A stretch of DNA of 64,000 bases. Origin: a phage. This document shows positions 7,645 through 43,501 of the stretch, in pieces (positions within the stretch are counted from its first letter, which is position 1; every line of letters starts with the position of its first letter). The stretch lies in sequence record MZ956761.1. One strand, written 5' to 3'. The position numbers and the translations under genes were made by a program. The notes under the pieces were generated by a model. That model searched no databases and was not told the origin of the DNA. It saw only the letters and a list, made by a program, of their open reading frames with translations.

Positions 7645-9232
<1,588 letters not shown>

Positions 9233-9235
9233 GCT

Positions 9236-9289
9236 GTTTACAAGTCCCTCGTGTTGTGTTATAGTAGTCTTACTGACATAACATGAGGA
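9236..9289 (+). promoter_or_regulatory. Early promoter/5'UTR cassette, copy 1 (54 bp, identical to 24489-24542)
   Basis: GTTTAC, about 18-nt spacer, TGtTATAGT, then RBS GAGGA; arms GTCCCTCGTGTTGTG / CATAACATGAGGAC form an imperfect dyad; starts 3 nt after rnlA stop. Confidence 0.7.
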
Positions 9290-9293
9290 CTTT

Positions 9294-9800
9294 ATGATGG
9301 ATTTGCAGCTTATTACTACTGAAATGGTCGTTGAAGCATACGGTGATACTACAGATGGGATTTCTGTATTCAAAGGAAATCGTCGAGTTGGATATATCAC
9401 CGATCTTAAGAAAGATTTAGCTAAGCAAGTTAAGCGGAAAACGACCGTTAAAGAATATCGAAATCGTCGTCTTGAGCAAGCCCGTGATATGCTTCCTGAT
9501 GCGGTTGAAGAGATGAAAGTCTTTTTAGAAAATCAACTCGCTAAGTATGATTGTGAAGTGTTCATTAATCAGACTCAACCTAATGTTCATATCAATAGCT
9601 GTAAATGCTATATCATCGTTAATCCTTTAACGGGAAAACATCGTCTTGGAATTAGTAATCCAAATCGTAGTGCATCGGATATGGCAGAAGATGTTGAGGC
9701 ATGCTTTAAAATTTCTAAATCTCCGGCGGAACATCATATTTTAATTAACGGTCTTTCTCAAGACGATATTGTAGAGGTTATTAAAACTTTATGCATGTAA
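9294..9800 (+). CDS. alc: Alc, inhibitor of host transcription on cytosine-containing DNA
   Basis: 168 aa MMDLQLITTEMVVEAYGD...; length and position as in T4. Confidence 0.85.
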   Translation: MMDLQLITTEMVVEAYGDTTDGISVFKGNRRVGYITDLKKDLAKQVKRKTTVKEYRNRRLEQARDMLPDAVEEMKVFLENQLAKYDCEVFINQTQPNVHINSCKCYIIVNPLTGKHRLGISNPNRSASDMAEDVEACFKISKSPAEHHILINGLSQDDIVEVIKTLCM

Positions 9801-12541: not shown

Positions 12542-12580
12542 GTTTACTTTATGGTAGAGTTGTGATATTATAGCTCTACC
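12542..12580 (+). promoter_or_regulatory. T4-type early promoter embedded in dyad symmetry
   Basis: GTTTAC 12542-12547, 18-nt spacer, gTGaTATTAT; GGTAGAG / CTCTACC inverted repeat flanks the -10; GAGGAAAACAAAATG follows. Confidence 0.6.
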
Positions 12581-12601
12581 AAAACAAATGAGGAAAACAA
12601 A

Positions 12602-12838
12602 ATGCTAAGTGAAAAACCAATTACTGTTAAAGAATTCCAAGAAAAAGTTAAACTATTTGCTCAGGAATTGGTAAATAAGGTTTCTGAACGATTTCCAGAA
12701 ACATCGGTTCGCGTTATTACCGAAACTCCTCGTTCAGTATTAGTAATTGTGAATCCAGGTGATGGTGATCAAATAACACATCTCAAACTGGATTTTGATG
12801 GATTAGTTGAAGCACAAAGGGTGTATGGCGTACTATGA
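12602..12838 (+). CDS. cd.2: Hypothetical protein (78 aa)
   Basis: ATG ORF with GAGGAAA RBS; symbol by synteny. Confidence 0.55.
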   Translation: MLSEKPITVKEFQEKVKLFAQELVNKVSERFPETSVRVITETPRSVLVIVNPGDGDQITHLKLDFDGLVEAQRVYGVL

Positions 12839-15508: not shown

Positions 15509-15545
15509 GTTTACAGTATGGTTCCTTTGTGATAGTATTATCTTA
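15509..15545 (+). promoter_or_regulatory. T4-type early promoter
   Basis: GTTTAC 15509-15514, 18-nt spacer, gTGaTAGTAT; followed by AAAGGAGAATAAAATG. Confidence 0.6.
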
Positions 15546-15565
15546 CACAAACAAAGGAGAATAAA

Positions 15566-15898
15566 ATGAAAACGATTAATCTGAACGCTGCAGTTAAAAC
15601 TAAATGCTTCAATGGTAAATATGATGAAACTATGTGGTTCTTAATGGCAGTTGAAGGTGATATTATTGAAGTAGAAACAACAGAAGGTATGGGAACAGAT
15701 TTCACCTTTACAATTCAAGTTCATAATTTCTTTACTGGTTGGATTTATGAATTGAATACAGTAATCGTTGGAAAAATTGAACAAAATGAATTAGGTGAAT
15801 GGCATTATGTTACAGCTCGCCAACGCGCAGAACGCTTAATTGAGAAGATGAAAAAAGTTGGTAAACTTGACATGCAGCACTGGAAAGTAGTAAAATAA
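15566..15898 (+). CDS. 30.8: Hypothetical protein (110 aa)
   Basis: ATG with AAGGAGA RBS; symbol by synteny. Confidence 0.6.
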   Translation: MKTINLNAAVKTKCFNGKYDETMWFLMAVEGDIIEVETTEGMGTDFTFTIQVHNFFTGWIYELNTVIVGKIEQNELGEWHYVTARQRAERLIEKMKKVGKLDMQHWKVVK

Positions 15899-15901
15899 TT
15901 G

Positions 15902-15942
15902 TTTACTTTGGTACAGGATATGATATTATATACCTGTACCGC
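15902..15942 (+). promoter_or_regulatory. T4-type early promoter embedded in dyad symmetry
   Basis: GTTTAC 15902-15907, 17-nt spacer, TATTAT; GGTACAGG / CCTGTACC inverted repeat flanks the -10. Confidence 0.6.
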
Positions 15943-15965
15943 AATTAAACATCTTGGAGAATAAA

Positions 15966-16331
15966 ATGAACTACATCAACTTTGAACGTAAATATGTTTC
16001 TAATGGTATTGCAGGTTCTATTGATACTATTTGCCTCTGGAAACATCAAAACGGATCAGTATGCGAAATTGAACAGTATATGACTCCTAACTACGTTTAT
16101 ATGCGATTTGAAAATGGCATCACGGTTTCAATCACAATGGAAGGTTCCAACTTCAAAATCGCTCTGGATGATGATTTTCGTCAACGTGATTTAGGGACTC
16201 ATCCTTGCTGGAATGGCGTTAATCGCAAGCTTCTGGTTAAAACTTGGATTCGTCATATTCTGAGTAACAGAGCTAAACCTGAGCATCTTGAAGCGATCTT
16301 TGATGTAGTTCTTAATGAATTTGATATTTAA
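15966..16331 (+). CDS. 30.7: Hypothetical protein (121 aa)
   Basis: ATG at 15966 with GGAGAATAAA RBS (track ORF starts at an upstream TTG); symbol by synteny. Confidence 0.6.
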   Translation: MNYINFERKYVSNGIAGSIDTICLWKHQNGSVCEIEQYMTPNYVYMRFENGITVSITMEGSNFKIALDDDFRQRDLGTHPCWNGVNRKLLVKTWIRHILSNRAKPEHLEAIFDVVLNEFDI

Positions 16332-20303: not shown

Positions 20304-20311
20304 TATAAATA
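20304..20311 (+). promoter_or_regulatory. Late promoter TATAAATA upstream of first alt gene
   Basis: Exact TATAAATA about 20 nt upstream of the alt ATG. Confidence 0.6.
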
Positions 20312-20331: not shown

Positions 20332-22428
20332 ATGATGGAACTCATTACAGAATTATTTGACGAAGATACTACTCTTCCGATTACAAACTTAAACCCAAAG
20401 AAGAAAATACCACAAATTTTTTCAGTTCATGTTGATGATGCAATTGAACAACCAGGCTTTCGTTTATGTACCTATACATCTGGAGGTGATACTAATCGCG
20501 ATTTAAAGATGGGCGATAAAATGATGCATATTGTTCCTTTTACATTAACTGCTAAAGGTTCAATTGCTAAATTAAAAGGTCTCGGTCCAAGCCCAATTAA
20601 CTACATCAATTCAGTTTTTACCGTTGCAATGCAGACGATGCGTCAGTATAAAATTGATGCCTGTATGCTCCGTATTCTTAAGTCTAAAACTGCTGGTCAA
20701 GCTCGACAAATTCAAGTTATTGCTGATAGACTTATCCGTAGTCGTTCAGGTGGCAGATACGTCCTTCTTAAGGAACTCTGGGATTACGATAAAAAGTATG
20801 CATATATTCTTATACATCGCAAAAATGTATCACTAGAAGACATTCCAGGAGTTCCGGAAATTAGTACCGAGCTCTTTACTAAAGTTGAATCGAAGGTCGG
20901 TGATGTTTATATCAATAAAGATACCGGAGCTCAAGTAACTAAAAATGAGGCAATTGCAGCATCTATTGCGCAAGAAAACGATAAACGTTCTGACCAAGCT
21001 GTAATCGTTAAAGTTAAAATTTCCCGTAGAGCAATTGCACAAAGTCAATCATTAGAATCTTCTAGATTTGAAAGTGAATTATTCCAGAAGTATGAATCTA
21101 CCGCAGCTAATTTCAATAAACCTGCTACCGCTCCTTTAATTCCCGAAGCAGAAGAAATGAAACTTGGAATTAATTCAATAGCTTCTAAAACTAAGGCAGC
21201 AAAAATCATTGCCGAAGGAACTGCAGATGAACTTCACTATGATTATAAATTCTTTTCAAAAAGTGAGGTTAATGAAGTTTCTGAAAAGATAAAAGATGTA
21301 ATTCTTAATGCGATTAAAAATGAACCAACTACTTCAATAAAATGTTTAGAGAAATACGCAGCAGCTGTTAATCAACTCTTTGAAGAATATAAAGATAATT
21401 GGCTTGATAAACATAATAAAACTCGTAAAGGGCAGCCAGATGAAGTCTGGGAAGAAATGACTAAAAATTCCTGGAACGCAGCAAAAACTAAATTCCTCAA
21501 AAGAATGATTTATAGTTTTTCTGGAATTGGTGCAGGTCCAATGATTGATATTACTATTGCCCGTGATGGTTCTAAATATACTCCATCACAAAAGCGCGGC
21601 ATTAGAGAGTATTGTGGTTCAGGATATACAGACATTAATAATCTTCTTTTAGGTCGTTACAATCCAGAACGGTATGAAATAATGAGTGAAAAAGAAATTG
21701 AATCTGCTATAAATAATTTAGATTCAGCTTTTGAAAATGGCGACCGTATACCGGAAGGCATTACAGTTTATCGTGCTCAAAGTATGACTGCTCCTATATA
21801 CGAAGCACTAGTTAAAAATAAAGTGTTCTATTTCAGAAATTTTGTATCTACTTCTTTAACTCCTATCATTTTTGGACGTTTTGGAATTACACATGCTGGT
21901 ATTGGTCTTTTAGAACCAGAAGCTCGTAACGAATTAACAGTTGATAAAAATGAAGAAGGAATAACTATTAATCCAAACGAAATAAGAGCGTATAAAGAAA
22001 ATCCTGAATACGTTAAAGTTCAAATAGGATGGGCAATTGATGGAGCTCATAAAGTTAATGTTGTATATCCAGGAAGTCTCGGAATAGCAACAGAAGCTGA
22101 AGTTATTCTACCGCGCGGATTGATGGTCAAAGTTAATAAAATAACTGATGCTTCTAATAATGACGGAACAACATCTAATAATACAAAACTCATTCAAGCT
22201 GAAGTTATGACCACAGAAGAACTCACCGAATCGGTAATCTATGACGGAGACCGTTTAATGGAAACCGGCGAAGTAGTTGCAATGACTGGTGATATTGAAA
22301 TAGAAGATAGAGTTGACTTTGCATCATTTGTTTCATCAAATGTTAAACAGAAAGTAGAATCATCTCTTGGAATTATTGCGTCTTGCATAGATATTACAAA
22401 CATGCCTTACAAGTTCGTTCAAGGATAA
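20332..22428 (+). CDS. alt: Alt-family NAD-protein ADP-ribosyltransferase (packaged internal head protein), paralog 1
   Basis: 698 aa; N-terminus MELITELFDE...; C-terminal domain carries R (VYRAQ), STS (FVSTSL) and E-x-E (TEAEVILPRG) motifs. Confidence 0.85.
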   Translation: MMELITELFDEDTTLPITNLNPKKKIPQIFSVHVDDAIEQPGFRLCTYTSGGDTNRDLKMGDKMMHIVPFTLTAKGSIAKLKGLGPSPINYINSVFTVAMQTMRQYKIDACMLRILKSKTAGQARQIQVIADRLIRSRSGGRYVLLKELWDYDKKYAYILIHRKNVSLEDIPGVPEISTELFTKVESKVGDVYINKDTGAQVTKNEAIAASIAQENDKRSDQAVIVKVKISRRAIAQSQSLESSRFESELFQKYESTAANFNKPATAPLIPEAEEMKLGINSIASKTKAAKIIAEGTADELHYDYKFFSKSEVNEVSEKIKDVILNAIKNEPTTSIKCLEKYAAAVNQLFEEYKDNWLDKHNKTRKGQPDEVWEEMTKNSWNAAKTKFLKRMIYSFSGIGAGPMIDITIARDGSKYTPSQKRGIREYCGSGYTDINNLLLGRYNPERYEIMSEKEIESAINNLDSAFENGDRIPEGITVYRAQSMTAPIYEALVKNKVFYFRNFVSTSLTPIIFGRFGITHAGIGLLEPEARNELTVDKNEEGITINPNEIRAYKENPEYVKVQIGWAIDGAHKVNVVYPGSLGIATEAEVILPRGLMVKVNKITDASNNDGTTSNNTKLIQAEVMTTEELTESVIYDGDRLMETGEVVAMTGDIEIEDRVDFASFVSSNVKQKVESSLGIIASCIDITNMPYKFVQG

Positions 22429-22431
22429 ATC

Positions 22432-24489
22432 ATGGAACTTATTACAGAATTATTTGACGGCGCTTCGGCGCCGGTTGTTAACTTAAATCCTAAGCATAAA
22501 ATACCTCAAATTTTTGCTATTCAAGCCGGTGAAGAAAGTGTTCTCCCTGGATTTAGATTTTGTACATACACCTCTGGTGGTGATACAAATAAAAACGTTA
22601 AGCCAGGCGATAAAATGATGCATATCGTAATGATAGGTGTCAATGAGAAACTATCATTAGTTAAGCTTAAAAACTTGGGTGGAAATCCAATTGGTGTCAT
22701 TAATGCCGTTTTTGATACTGCTCTTCAAACAATGAAACAGTATAAAATCGACGCATGCCTATTCCGCGTACTAAAAAGTAAAACAAATGGCGCAGCTCGT
22801 CAAATGCAAGTTATTGCTGACCGTTTAGTACGTACTAAGGGAGCAGGTCGATATGTTCTTTTAAAGGAAATCTGGGACTATGATAAAAAATATGCATATA
22901 TTATGGTTTACCGTAAAAATGCCAATTTAGAAGACATTCCAGGTGTACCTCCTATTTCAACTGAGTTATTCACAAAAGTTGAATCAAAGGTTGGTGATGT
23001 TTATGTAGATGTTAAAACAGGTAATGCTGTTCCTAAAGCTGTTGCTGTTGCTGCTTCTATTGCTTTAGAAAATGATAAGCGCACGGATCAAGCTGTTATT
23101 CAGAAAACTAAAATTAGTCGTCGATTAGCAGCACAAGCTCAATATTCTACTGTTGATGCTTCACTTCAGGGTGATAGCTTCGCCGCTAAGAAATATCAAG
23201 AGTTTGAATCTAAAGTTCCGGTATATAAAGCAGAAGGACCAATGAACTCTGGCGTTATTCAGATTGGTTCCAACTTCGGCAAAGGAGCTATCGGTGGTAT
23301 GAGAAGTGCTTCTCGTTTTAAATCTAACGATTATGAACTAGAAAGCTTTCGAAATCATATTGCATTGGCCCATGCACGTTTACGTGATCCGTCTATCAGA
23401 CTGCAGAGCGATATAACACATCAAGGTTCTCAAGAATATTTAAAGAATAAAGAATTTTTTGATTATAAAACCGATAAAATTTTGAGCGATCTCGCTGACA
23501 TTAATATTTCTAATAGCTTTGATGTTATTAAGAAAATTATCAATGATTTAGTTAAAGGTTCTAAAGCCACGCCAGACGAAAAGGTAGCTATTATTCAATT
23601 TGTCATGAATAGCATTTATAAATTGATTAATGAATCTGCTGCCCAGGCATATGAATACGCAAGCACCGAAGTAACTCCAAAAGGACTGACTCAGGCTGAA
23701 TCTGATGTAATTGAAGATTATTGTGCAGATTCATATGTTGAAATGAACTCGTTCCTTTTGGGTAAACCAGATTCTACCCGTGAAGAATACATGGAACGAG
23801 CTATTAAACACATCGAGACGTTGGATTCTGCATTCGCCAAAGGATCAGTTCTTCCTCCAGGAACTACGCTTTATCGTGGACAAGAAGTTACTTTTAAAAC
23901 TTTACGCCATAATATTGAAAATAAAATGTTCTATTTCAAGAACTTCGTATCAACATCGCTTAAACCAAATATCTTCGGTGAGCATGGTAAAAACTATATG
24001 GCTCTAGATGATTCTGGCGCAGTATTTTCTGGCGAAGGAGAAGGTTCTGTTGATGCAGAAGATTTGATGCATATGGGTAGTCATTCTACATATGCCAATG
24101 AAGATGCTGAAACTAGCGTAGGTATGGTAATTAAAGGGGCTGAGCGAATCAAAGTTATCGTTCCAGGTCATTTATCAGGATTTCCATCAGAAGCTGAAGT
24201 TATTCTACCACGTGGAATTTTGTTGAAGATTAATAAAGTAAGCACGTACATGATGAAAGAAACTGCTTATAACAAGTATCTAATCGAAGGTACAATCGTT
24301 CCTCCTTCTGAACAATTAGAAGAATCAGTATATGATGGAGACCATCTAATGGAAACTGGTGAAGTTCGTCCAATGGCTGGATTTAATCAATTCCTTGTAG
24401 AAGAATCAAAAGAAGAGGAAAACGAAGTTTCTCAAATCTTGGCTTCTTTGGTTAACATCAACGGAATGTCTAAAAAGTTCAAGATGTAG
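22432..24489 (+). CDS. Alt-family ADP-ribosyltransferase, paralog 2
   Basis: 685 aa; N-terminal about 230 aa closely similar to paralog 1, divergent middle region, R (LYRGQ), STS (FVSTSL) and E-x-E (SEAEVILPRG) motifs retained. Confidence 0.85.
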   Translation: MELITELFDGASAPVVNLNPKHKIPQIFAIQAGEESVLPGFRFCTYTSGGDTNKNVKPGDKMMHIVMIGVNEKLSLVKLKNLGGNPIGVINAVFDTALQTMKQYKIDACLFRVLKSKTNGAARQMQVIADRLVRTKGAGRYVLLKEIWDYDKKYAYIMVYRKNANLEDIPGVPPISTELFTKVESKVGDVYVDVKTGNAVPKAVAVAASIALENDKRTDQAVIQKTKISRRLAAQAQYSTVDASLQGDSFAAKKYQEFESKVPVYKAEGPMNSGVIQIGSNFGKGAIGGMRSASRFKSNDYELESFRNHIALAHARLRDPSIRLQSDITHQGSQEYLKNKEFFDYKTDKILSDLADINISNSFDVIKKIINDLVKGSKATPDEKVAIIQFVMNSIYKLINESAAQAYEYASTEVTPKGLTQAESDVIEDYCADSYVEMNSFLLGKPDSTREEYMERAIKHIETLDSAFAKGSVLPPGTTLYRGQEVTFKTLRHNIENKMFYFKNFVSTSLKPNIFGEHGKNYMALDDSGAVFSGEGEGSVDAEDLMHMGSHSTYANEDAETSVGMVIKGAERIKVIVPGHLSGFPSEAEVILPRGILLKINKVSTYMMKETAYNKYLIEGTIVPPSEQLEESVYDGDHLMETGEVRPMAGFNQFLVEESKEEENEVSQILASLVNINGMSKKFKM

Positions 24490-24542
24490 TTTACAAGTCC
24501 CTCGTGTTGTGTTATAGTAGTCTTACTGACATAACATGAGGA
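24489..24542 (+). promoter_or_regulatory. Early promoter/5'UTR cassette, copy 2 (54 bp, identical to 9236-9289)
   Basis: Exact 54-nt identity with the cassette upstream of alc; begins at the last base of the alt paralog 2 stop codon. Confidence 0.7.
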
Positions 24543-24549
24543 ACACAAA

Positions 24550-24840
24550 ATGAAATCTTCTTTACGCTTTTTAGGTCAAGAACTTGTAGTTGAAGGCGTT
24601 ATTCCTGCTGATAACGCTTTTAATGAAGCAGTTTACGATGAATTTATCAAAATTTTTGGAACAGATAAAAAGTTCGGAATTTTTCCTTCTGAAAATTTTT
24701 CAAAGCCAGAACAGACTGAAAGCATTTTCCAAGGTGTAGTAACAGGTAAATTTGAGTCAGAAGCTCCGGTAAAAATTGAAGTTTATATTGAAGACAGTTT
24801 AGTTGCTTCAGTTGCTGCTTTTATTTCATTCCGTAAATAA
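24550..24840 (+). CDS. Hypothetical protein (96 aa)
   Basis: ATG with GAGGA RBS supplied by the repeated cassette; followed by bidirectional terminator. Confidence 0.55.
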   Translation: MKSSLRFLGQELVVEGVIPADNAFNEAVYDEFIKIFGTDKKFGIFPSENFSKPEQTESIFQGVVTGKFESEAPVKIEVYIEDSLVASVAAFISFRK

Positions 24841-24846
24841 AAATAT

Positions 24847-24864
24847 GGGGACCGAAAGGTCCCC
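24847..24864. terminator. Bidirectional terminator hairpin between convergent genes
   Basis: GGGGACC-GAAA-GGTCCCC; A/T-rich flanks on both sides. Confidence 0.65.
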
Positions 24865-24868
24865 ATTG

Positions 24869-43245: not shown

Positions 43246-43501
43246 TATTCATCATCCTCGTCTTCGTCATCTTCGTCAGAGTCTTTGTCTTTTTTGTCGT
43301 CTTTATCATCGCTATCTTCGTCATCATCCTCGTCTTCATCATCCTCATCATCGGGTTCTTCACCTTCGATTAAGAAATTACGAGCGATAGCGATTTTTTC
43401 TTCTTTAATTAAATCAATCGTTCTTGCAGCCATGGCTTCAGCAAAGAATTTACGAGCGGCTACGAGGTCGTTTGATTTAATAGCTTCAATTAAACCTTCC
43501 A

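Follow-up and report, generated by a model that had tools for sequence, protein, structure and literature searches.

The main finding of this study is that a 54-bp element present twice in a 64,000-nt stretch of phage DNA (sequence record MZ956761.1, hereafter the window), once in front of alc and once in front of a homologue of T4 alt.-3, is by its sequence a T4-type early promoter cassette of the promoter-early stem-loop (PeSL) type, with predicted start sites, and that its RNA is predicted to fold into a hairpin that buries the Shine-Dalgarno (SD) sequence of the downstream gene. The explanation of the whole that we favor, and regard as probable but well short of certain, combines an early cassette, an SD-gating hairpin, and copying from alc to alt.-3 with later exchange. 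The cassette would consist of a strong sigma-70 promoter (GTTTACA, 17 bp, TGn, TATAGT) followed by an 18-nt leader and a GAGGA SD, and would drive alc and, in Tequatrovirus, also alt.-3 as immediate-early genes. On RNA entering from upstream (from rnlA at one locus, and from alt, including late transcripts, at the other), the spacer with its anti-SD CCUC would pair with the leader and the SD, and the resulting 19-22 bp hairpin would bury the ribosome-binding site on read-through RNA. RNA begun at the cassette's own +1, which lies at the hairpin apex, would lack the 5' arm and leave the ribosome site open. The downstream gene would in this way depend for its translation on the cassette's own early promoter and would be shielded from transcription coming from upstream. 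Such a design would be ancestral to alc in several T4-like genera, and in the Tequatrovirus ancestor the alc cassette would have overwritten the alt.-3 cassette, short patches being exchanged afterwards by ectopic conversion. The start site, the translation block, and the biological purpose are what we infer.

A preliminary description of this DNA had reported two exact copies of the element. This is confirmed by an exact search of the whole window, in which GTTTACAAGTCCCTCGTGTTGTGTTATAGTAGTCTTACTGACATAACATGAGGA occurs at 9236-9289 (copy A) and 24489-24542 (copy B), both on the + strand, and by an independent repeat search that recovers the same pair (family D6, 100%, spacing 15253). There is no third site in the window at up to three mismatches, 0 matches are seen in 100 dinucleotide-preserving shuffles, and the identity between the copies breaks off sharply at either edge of the 54-mer. 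The flanks are also as described there, with a stop codon at most 3 nt upstream and GAGGA 4-7 nt before an ATG. Copy A begins 3 nt past the rnlA stop (TAA, 9230-9232) and ends 4 nt from the annotated alc start (ATG 9294) and 7 nt from a second ATG (9297). Copy B shares its first G with the final base of the TAG that ends a 685-aa alt paralogue (open reading frame [ORF] 22432-24489), and its end lies 7 nt from the ATG of the 96-aa ORF at 24550, which is the homologue of T4 alt.-3.

The DNA of the window matches that of Escherichia phage ADUt (OQ466432.1), a Tequatrovirus, at 100% identity, and its + strand corresponds to the strand of the T4 map that is transcribed early. The 54-mer was found at 999 places in 500 phage records, all at ≥90% identity, with about two per record (one record has a single site) and several independent T4 sequences among them. 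In T4 itself (NC_000866), copy A is the same as in ADUt and copy B differs by 1 base. As judged from these records, the two-copy layout is a fixed, genus-wide feature of Tequatrovirus. An assembly artefact is ruled out because the same two copies are present in about 500 records including several T4 sequences, and a recent duplication in ADUt because the layout is genus-wide. The preliminary description had inferred "recent copying or gene conversion"; the first half falls, since about 500 relatives share both loci, and the second half stands, for reasons given below. The further copies elsewhere that it suggested looking for were not found in these genomes, which have about two sites each, at the same two loci in relatives, and the other GTTTAC promoters in the window have only the consensus in common with the 54-mer. 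Scans for extra variants gave 8 stretches in IMG/VR and 9 in metagenomes. Public annotations disagree on the element: the region of copy B in phage SA20RB (L019:32292-32341) is labeled a rho-independent terminator by WebGeSTer, with neither copy annotated as a promoter, and both copies are marked as promoters in the GenBank record of phage Lutter (L005:18001-18030).

Several lines of evidence argue that the cassette is an early promoter, as originally proposed. First, in a consensus scan both copies match the sigma-70 consensus at 10 of 12 positions (TTTACA-17-TATAGT, with TG), and both also fit the stricter T4 early pattern GTTTAC-N15-TGnTAnnnT, which has only three further exact matches in the window, all on the + strand. 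The -10 hexamer, TATAGT, departs from the PeSL form TAYWAT at one base (G at position 5), and TATAAT variants occur in other Tequatroviruses. The 45 nt upstream are 78% AT for copy A and 69% for copy B, against 63.8% for the window, which is a weaker signal at copy B. Second, across 23 Tequatrovirus genomes the -35 box, the TG, and -10 positions -12 (T), -11 (A), and -7 (T) are invariant, and positions -10 and -8 of the hexamer are polymorphic. This combination of an invariant -35/TG/TAnnnT core with a variable -10 and -8 is the footprint expected of a working sigma-70 promoter. These invariance counts exclude copy A of the ECO95 draft (L041), in which a 1-nt T insertion after element position 10, possibly a sequencing error, gives an 18-bp spacer. 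Third, a published T4 time course places alc and alt.-3 in the early class, both as RNA and as protein, with alt late and alt.-1/-2 middle, and Alc is described as an early product in the T4 literature. These RNA and protein classes are consistent with the shared early regulation of alc and alt.-3 that had been suggested, and because alt.-3 is early while the upstream alt is late, an early promoter immediately upstream of alt.-3 is required. The late box TATAAATA is not found in or near either copy. The predicted +1 was placed at the 7th nt after the -10 hexamer.

A second property of the cassette is its predicted RNA structure. Each copy folds as one long hairpin of 19-22 bp that takes up nearly the whole cassette, with element positions 11/12-25 pairing with 40-53/54 and an apical 4-bp helix formed by 28-31 with 36-39 (-24.4 kcal/mol and z -5.3 for copy A, -23.0 kcal/mol and z -4.7 for copy B, with 0 of 200 shuffles as stable in either case). 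It is retained in 115-nt contexts for either copy. The 5' arm is the promoter spacer, whose CCUC pairs with the GAGG of the SD (GAGGA, element positions 50-54, the ATG being 4-7 nt further on), and the apex holds the -10 hexamer (25-30) and the predicted +1 (37). By position, this +1 is 3' of the entire 5' arm, so that the cassette's own transcript would not contain the 5' strand, and RNA beginning at element position 36-38 has no significant structure upon folding. The cost of opening the region from SD to AUG, predicted at the ensemble level, is 9.8-9.9 kcal/mol on read-through RNA versus 2.1 kcal/mol on its own transcript for copy A, and 12.2-12.4 versus 2.0 kcal/mol for copy B. All of the 30 copies examined (16 sequence variants) retain the hairpin with the SD paired, at -16.8 to -26.9 kcal/mol, and the sense strand is more stable than the antisense strand in every one of them, as expected from G-U pairs in a structure acting as RNA. 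The "imperfect dyad spanning the -10 region" noted previously is thus genuine as a dyad, but not in its small extent, and its likely function changes once it is seen, upon folding, as a long hairpin burying the SD. A search of Rfam 15 gave 0 matches at gathering score in the whole window, and the only literature hit for the 54-mer as a sequence was an irrelevant one. As a separate matter, a RegB target was considered and dropped, the SD being GAGGA without the GGAG or GGAU motif described for RegB.

Read-through RNA is expected at both copies. No terminator-like site lies between rnlA and copy A, and none is found on the + strand from the late box at 20304-20311 to copy B. Given this late box and the absence of a terminator, late alt transcripts should run through alt.-3 to 24845-24866, where a perfect 9-bp GC-rich hairpin (ATGGGGACC GAAA GGTCCCCAT) separates the convergent alt.-3 and gene 54 and is scored as a terminator on both strands. 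With the hairpin over copy B, the alt.-3 protein would be made only early, in agreement with the T4 proteome, where alt.-3 is an early protein.

The strongest evidence for selection on the modeled hairpin comes from the comparison between genera. Among 24 alc loci retrieved from IMG/VR with an Alc alignment, at least six sequence-distinct lineages outside Tequatrovirus have, upon folding, a stretch right after the -35 that pairs with the leader and SD of the same cassette, in 5'/3' arms as different as UCCUCAUUUUGUUG/CAACAAAAUGAGGA, UCUCCGUUU/AAACGGAGA, UCUCCUCAG/CUGAGGAGA, and ACCUCUCAUUUUU/AAAAUGAGAGGU. The predicted opening cost in these cassettes is 9-14 kcal/mol on read-through RNA versus 1-3 kcal/mol on their own transcript. 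In an arm-swap test of these cassettes, cognate halves average 12.0 kcal/mol versus 5.4 ± 2.7 kcal/mol for between-family chimeras (n = 48), the cognate half being best in seven of eight columns. Within Tequatrovirus, a single compensatory path (C15-G50 to U-G to U-A) is seen, together with three one-sided changes that preserve pairing. Variants that break a main-stem pair are all singletons (7/7), versus recurrence of 9 of the 11 loop, pair-preserving, or compensated variants (Fisher p 0.005). Rare variants with altered stems include copy B of LF73P3 (L040), in which T14C and T19C break two pairs, and copy B of L066, in which C12A breaks one anti-SD pair. At three other alc loci from IMG/VR (L048, L049, and L064) there is no GTTTAC-type promoter, and a GC-rich hairpin (GGGGTGTACAAGCCCC) followed by T-rich sequence, which is terminator-like, lies about 100 nt upstream of alc.

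The rival explanation that survives best, although we consider it unlikely, is that the hairpin acts chiefly in termination or attenuation, isolating the cassette from transcription that arrives from upstream, with burial of the SD being incidental. This is the role that the authors of the PeSL papers give to the stem-loop, and stem-loops of RB49 PeSLs lowered expression of a downstream lacZ and were called effective terminators (PMC2839356). The annotators of SA20RB reached the same verdict for copy B, and a hairpin is present in all six early cassettes of the window but reaches the SD in only half of them. However, a terminator-like score is obtained for neither copy, and no U-run follows the stem, the tail of copy B being ACACAAAAUG and that of copy A (CUUUAUGAUG) lying partly within the helix, which contains its UUU. 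Furthermore, the stem is AU- and GU-rich, unlike the polyG/polyC stems of PeSLs, and the arm that co-varies across genera is the one holding the SD.

The next point is the origin of copy B. Early cassettes within one genome are typically 0.68-0.70 identical, which reflects the consensus they have in common, and top unrelated pairs reach 0.75-0.81. The Tequatrovirus alc/alt.-3 pair is an outlier, identical over 54 bp and still 0.91 when the differing SD-ATG spacers are included, whereas the same pair does not stand out against other early cassettes in Mosigvirus (0.79-0.81) or Dhakavirus (0.74). Outside Tequatrovirus, the alt.-3 cassette is 0.69-0.74 identical to the alc cassette of its own genome, which is the background level, and is ungated, with a predicted opening cost of 3.5-5.5 versus 2.4-3.2 kcal/mol. 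A gated alc in several lineages together with an ungated alt.-3 outside Tequatrovirus implies that the alc cassette is ancestral and was copied onto alt.-3; it is from this distribution of gating that we infer the direction in which one cassette overwrote the other in the Tequatrovirus ancestor.

After this event the two copies appear to have been kept alike. In the 23 Tequatrovirus genomes there are no fixed differences between A and B, and at least six polymorphisms are common to A and B, down to the derived base (C15T, G16A, T27C, G29A, G32A, and C34T; a further tabulation adds T33A, making seven), including a two-site haplotype, G29A+G32A. The variants thus form a single pool. The mean number of differences is roughly equal among comparisons, at 1.83 for A-A, 2.50 for B-B, and 2.28 for A-B between genomes, and 2.00 for A-B within a genome (permutation p 0.043), with identical A/B pairs in 6 of the 23 (permutation p 0.018). 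One Dhakavirus-like contig (IMG/VR 2706795356) has an exact 32-nt stretch of leader, SD, and ATG common to its alc and alt.-3 cassettes, where five sister genomes have at most 10 nt in common, which implies an independent second exchange between the same two loci. The shared polymorphisms, the lack of fixed differences, and the Dhakavirus-like exchange together indicate that recurrent short-patch ectopic gene conversion keeps these sequences alike, and the gene conversion part of the preliminary description is upheld on the same grounds. The 15 kb between the copies carries DNA ligase, gene 31, cd, and pseT. Gene 30 is essential in T4, and as a crossover between the copies would delete or duplicate the 15 kb, only non-crossover conversion should survive. 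The homology needed for recombination in T4 has been reported to be <50 bp (cited in Arbiol et al. 2010, PMC2839356).

Could A and B instead resemble each other because purifying selection holds both at one optimum, with no exchange and with shared variants arising as recurrent mutations? We think this decidedly improbable. It is true that 41 of the 54 columns are invariant among the 16 variants, that the shared variants are all transitions and thus able to recur, and that the excess of within-genome similarity is modest (p 0.02-0.04). However, the element is as polymorphic as its flanks (nucleotide diversity [pi] of 0.038-0.051 versus 0.026-0.043), and recurrent mutation sits poorly with a two-site haplotype at both loci, with zero fixed differences despite the genus-wide age of the layout, and with an independent 32-nt exchange in a Dhakavirus-like contig. 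Besides, other genera have functional but different cassettes at the two loci, which means that there is no single optimum.

Several observations weigh against gating by the hairpin and conversion between the copies. The +1 is predicted from consensus only. No benefit of shielding alc from rnlA read-through is evident. Within-genus covariation over the 16 variants is not significant, as 87 of 500 shuffles reach the observed score, and the common variant G29A breaks a pair of the apical helix. A gated alc cassette is lacking in some of the 24 alc loci, namely Mosigvirus-like L055, L051/L062, and L053, so the feature is not indispensable. The p values for within-genome similarity are modest (0.018-0.043), and come from genomes that are non-independent and partly chosen for divergence. 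A hairpin over the spacer and -10 is found in each of the window's six early cassettes, and only three of these hairpins reach the SD. Hairpins may have a more general role in such cassettes, and inclusion of the SD could partly follow from short leaders. Finally, ribosomes terminating beside the base of the hairpin could open its lower pairs, resulting in coupling rather than insulation.

This last point can be extended into a full alternative, in which the hairpin is a device for translational coupling: ribosomes ending rnlA or the alt paralogue would melt its base, and alc and alt.-3 would be translated in proportion to the upstream gene. What makes this attractive is that in both copies, behind unrelated upstream genes, the distance from the stop codon is 0-3 nt to the cassette and 6-10 nt to the first paired base. 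Nevertheless, we rate it very unlikely. In this compact genome, stop codons generally lie right against promoters, and a terminating ribosome reaches only the outermost pairs, especially in copy A, leaving at least 14 pairs including those of G50-A51. In addition, alt.-3 protein is early and alt late in T4, which argues against coupling at copy B. Least credible of all is a role of the long helix in RNA processing, for instance by host RNase III, with cleavage splitting upstream mRNA from alc or alt.-3 and activating or inactivating the downstream message: a helix of 19-22 bp with few interruptions (about two helical turns), intercistronic at both copies, would suit such a role, but it has an internal loop and G-U pairs, no such site is given here in a review of T4 post-transcriptional control (Uzan and Miller 2010, PMC3014915), and the anti-SD next to the -35 in many lineages would be left unexplained.

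How far SD gating extends beyond alc and alt.-3 is a broader question. Hairpins over the -10 seem, from folding, to be the rule for early promoters in this window. The cassette before the gene 30.8 homologue (15509-15568), unrelated in sequence to the 54-mer, pairs spacer CCUU(UGUG) with its own AAGG(AG) SD and has an opening cost of 10.2 kcal/mol on read-through RNA versus 0.4 on its own transcript, making it the third predicted gated cassette in the window. In the cassettes at 1165-1225, 12542-12604, and 15901-15968, the hairpin (-15 to -21 kcal/mol) consists of a spacer arm and an arm just after the -10 and ends before the SD, so no gating is predicted. There may therefore be a subclass of T-even early cassettes that are self-insulating through a spacer anti-SD and that behave as a portable module, overwriting other cassettes by short-patch conversion, which we put forward as a tentative idea that could easily prove wrong. 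A self-insulating design fits half of the window's six early cassettes, namely those preceding alc, alt.-3, and the gene 30.8 homologue, and also the alc cassettes of at least six lineages. On the portable module view, overwriting was done at alt.-3 and partly in a Dhakavirus-like phage.

Comparison with known systems shows that this element is a refinement of known T4 biology rather than an element of a new kind. PeSLs are cassettes of T4-type phages (Arbiol et al. 2010, PMC2839356; Comeau et al. 2014, PMC4122927), defined in 2010 by a stem-loop lying between -35 and -10 or overlapping the -10, with a stop codon, SD, and ATG at the ends (PMC2839356); the T4/PST early consensus in this literature is TTTACW..N17..TAYWAT. 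A resemblance to PeSLs had been noted previously, and the match to the 2010 sequence definition bears it out. The stop codon, AT-rich stretch, -35/N17/-10, stem-loop overlapping the -10, SD, and ATG are all present in the 54-bp cassette, with the predicted hairpin extending from element position 7/9 to 56/57 around a -10 at the apex (z about -5). As in PeSLs, units are repeated within the genome and offer short patches of homology for recombination, of which the A/B exchange is a signature, copy B adjoining the variable alt-paralogue region and copy A lying between conserved genes. There are also important differences. The stem here is AU-/GU-rich, takes in nearly the whole cassette, and buries the SD, where PeSL stems are polyG/polyC and are treated in the PeSL papers as terminators, with no mention of translation or ribosome sites (PMC2839356, PMC4122927). 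It is the cassette itself that has moved, between conserved loci 15 kb apart, and not an ORF between neighboring cassettes. The alc and alt.-3 loci lie outside classic hyperplastic regions, and excision of a mini-circle would be lethal here because the intervening 15 kb includes gene 30.

A second parallel is offered by T4 e, soc, 49, and I-TevI, whose initiation regions are gated by hairpins (Uzan and Miller 2010, PMC3014915). In these genes the SD and/or AUG lies within a helix when the transcript comes from an upstream promoter, as is predicted here, and a promoter inside the 5'-strand region gives rise to transcripts that lack this strand and are translated, as would be the case here by position. 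The difference is that their internal promoter is late (TATAAATA) and the block delays expression until late, whereas the promoter here is an early sigma-70 one and the predicted block would confine translation to this promoter's own RNA. Neither alc nor alt.-3 is mentioned as hairpin-gated in T4 reviews (Uzan and Miller 2010, PMC3014915; Hinton 2010, PMC2988021). The cassettes also resemble T4 early promoters (Pe), described as UP/-35/TGn/-10 "uber" promoters (Hinton 2010, PMC2988021), in their GTTTAC -35, TGn extended -10, AT-rich upstream sequence, and early downstream genes, and differ from them in that the alc/alt.-3 pair is identical over 54 bp where ordinary pairs are at 0.68-0.70 and 0.75-0.81 at the top.

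These findings matter because T4 is the reference model for phage gene regulation, and the two reviews cited above list translation control by a promoter inside a hairpin only for the late promoters of e, soc, 49, and I-TevI, while the PeSL papers discuss stem-loops only as terminators and recombination patches. If SD gating is true, alc, which is the gene for shut-off of host transcription, and alt.-3 would be translated only from their own immediate-early transcripts, and one small unit would be at once promoter, translational gate, and recombination substrate. If it is general, it would offer a physical reason why some T4 early proteins come solely from proximal immediate-early transcripts, and PeSLs would gain a function in translation. 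The pair is also a clean natural case of concerted evolution acting on a regulatory cassette at two viral loci separated by 15 kb, and another genus provides a second, independent exchange. Because a public T4 differential RNA sequencing (dRNA-seq) dataset exists, the main prediction is cheap to check. The coordinates of the features discussed are collected in Table 1.

Table 1. Features of the two cassettes and their neighborhood (window positions unless a locus or accession is given; pairs in element numbering; MFE, minimum free energy)
Feature	Position	Strand	Basis or remark
Cassette copy A	9236..9289	+	rnlA/alc intergenic; exact 54-mer
Copy A -35 element GTTTACA	9236..9242	+	Consensus scan; invariant in Tequatrovirus copies examined except ECO95 copy A
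Copy A extended -10 TGT-TATAGT	9257..9265	+	TG present, 17-bp spacer
Copy A predicted transcription start, element position 37 (A)	9272	+	NC_000866 136300, minus strand
Copy A predicted RNA hairpin	9242..9292	+	Pairs 7-12/52-57, 14-25/40-51, 28-31/36-39
Copy A anti-SD CCUC	9247..9250	+	Within promoter spacer; SD-paired in MFE and centroid folds
Copy A SD GAGGA	9285..9289	+	Sequence; paired in every variant
Cassette copy B	24489..24542	+	alt paralogue/alt.-3 intergenic; exact 54-mer
Copy B -35 element GTTTACA	24489..24495	+	Consensus scan
Copy B extended -10 TGT-TATAGT	24510..24518	+	Consensus scan
Copy B predicted transcription start, element position 37	24525	+	NC_000866 123057, minus strand
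Copy B predicted RNA hairpin	24497..24544	+	Pairs 9-10/55-56, 12-25/40-53, 28-31/36-39
Copy B SD GAGGA	24538..24542	+	Opening-cost computation
rnlA (RNA ligase 1)	8108..9232	+	Annotation; upstream gene, transcripts read into copy A
alc (inhibitor of host transcription)	9294..9800	+	Annotation; PHROG 1253, E 3e-82
T4-type late promoter box TATAAATA	20304..20311	+	Just upstream of alt; late read-through source for copy B
alt and full-length paralogue	20335..24489	+	Annotation; upstream genes, transcripts read into copy B
alt.-3 homologue (96 aa)	24550..24840	+	PHROG 1739, unknown function; early RNA and early protein in T4
Bidirectional terminator hairpin	24845..24866		Ends alt.-3 unit, faces gene 54; 9-bp stem, 6 GC pairs
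Dhakavirus-like 32-nt stretch	L054:1177-1208 and L071:574-605		Exact match between alc and alt.-3 cassettes

Some further observations were made in the window and its relatives. In ADUt and most of the relatives fetched there are two full-length tandem alt genes (20335-24489), with stretches about 72-78% identical (families D1, D4, D5, and D9), and in T4 and Lutter the second alt is present only as the remnants alt.-1/alt.-2. The annotation of the T4 remnant ORF alt.-2 extends into the cassette as far as the TAG within TATAGT. Lastly, positions 43249-43365 consist of imperfect repeats in a 9-nt phase (TCATCATCCTCGTCTTCGTCATC..., family D2), of which the - strand would encode an Asp/Glu-rich tract.

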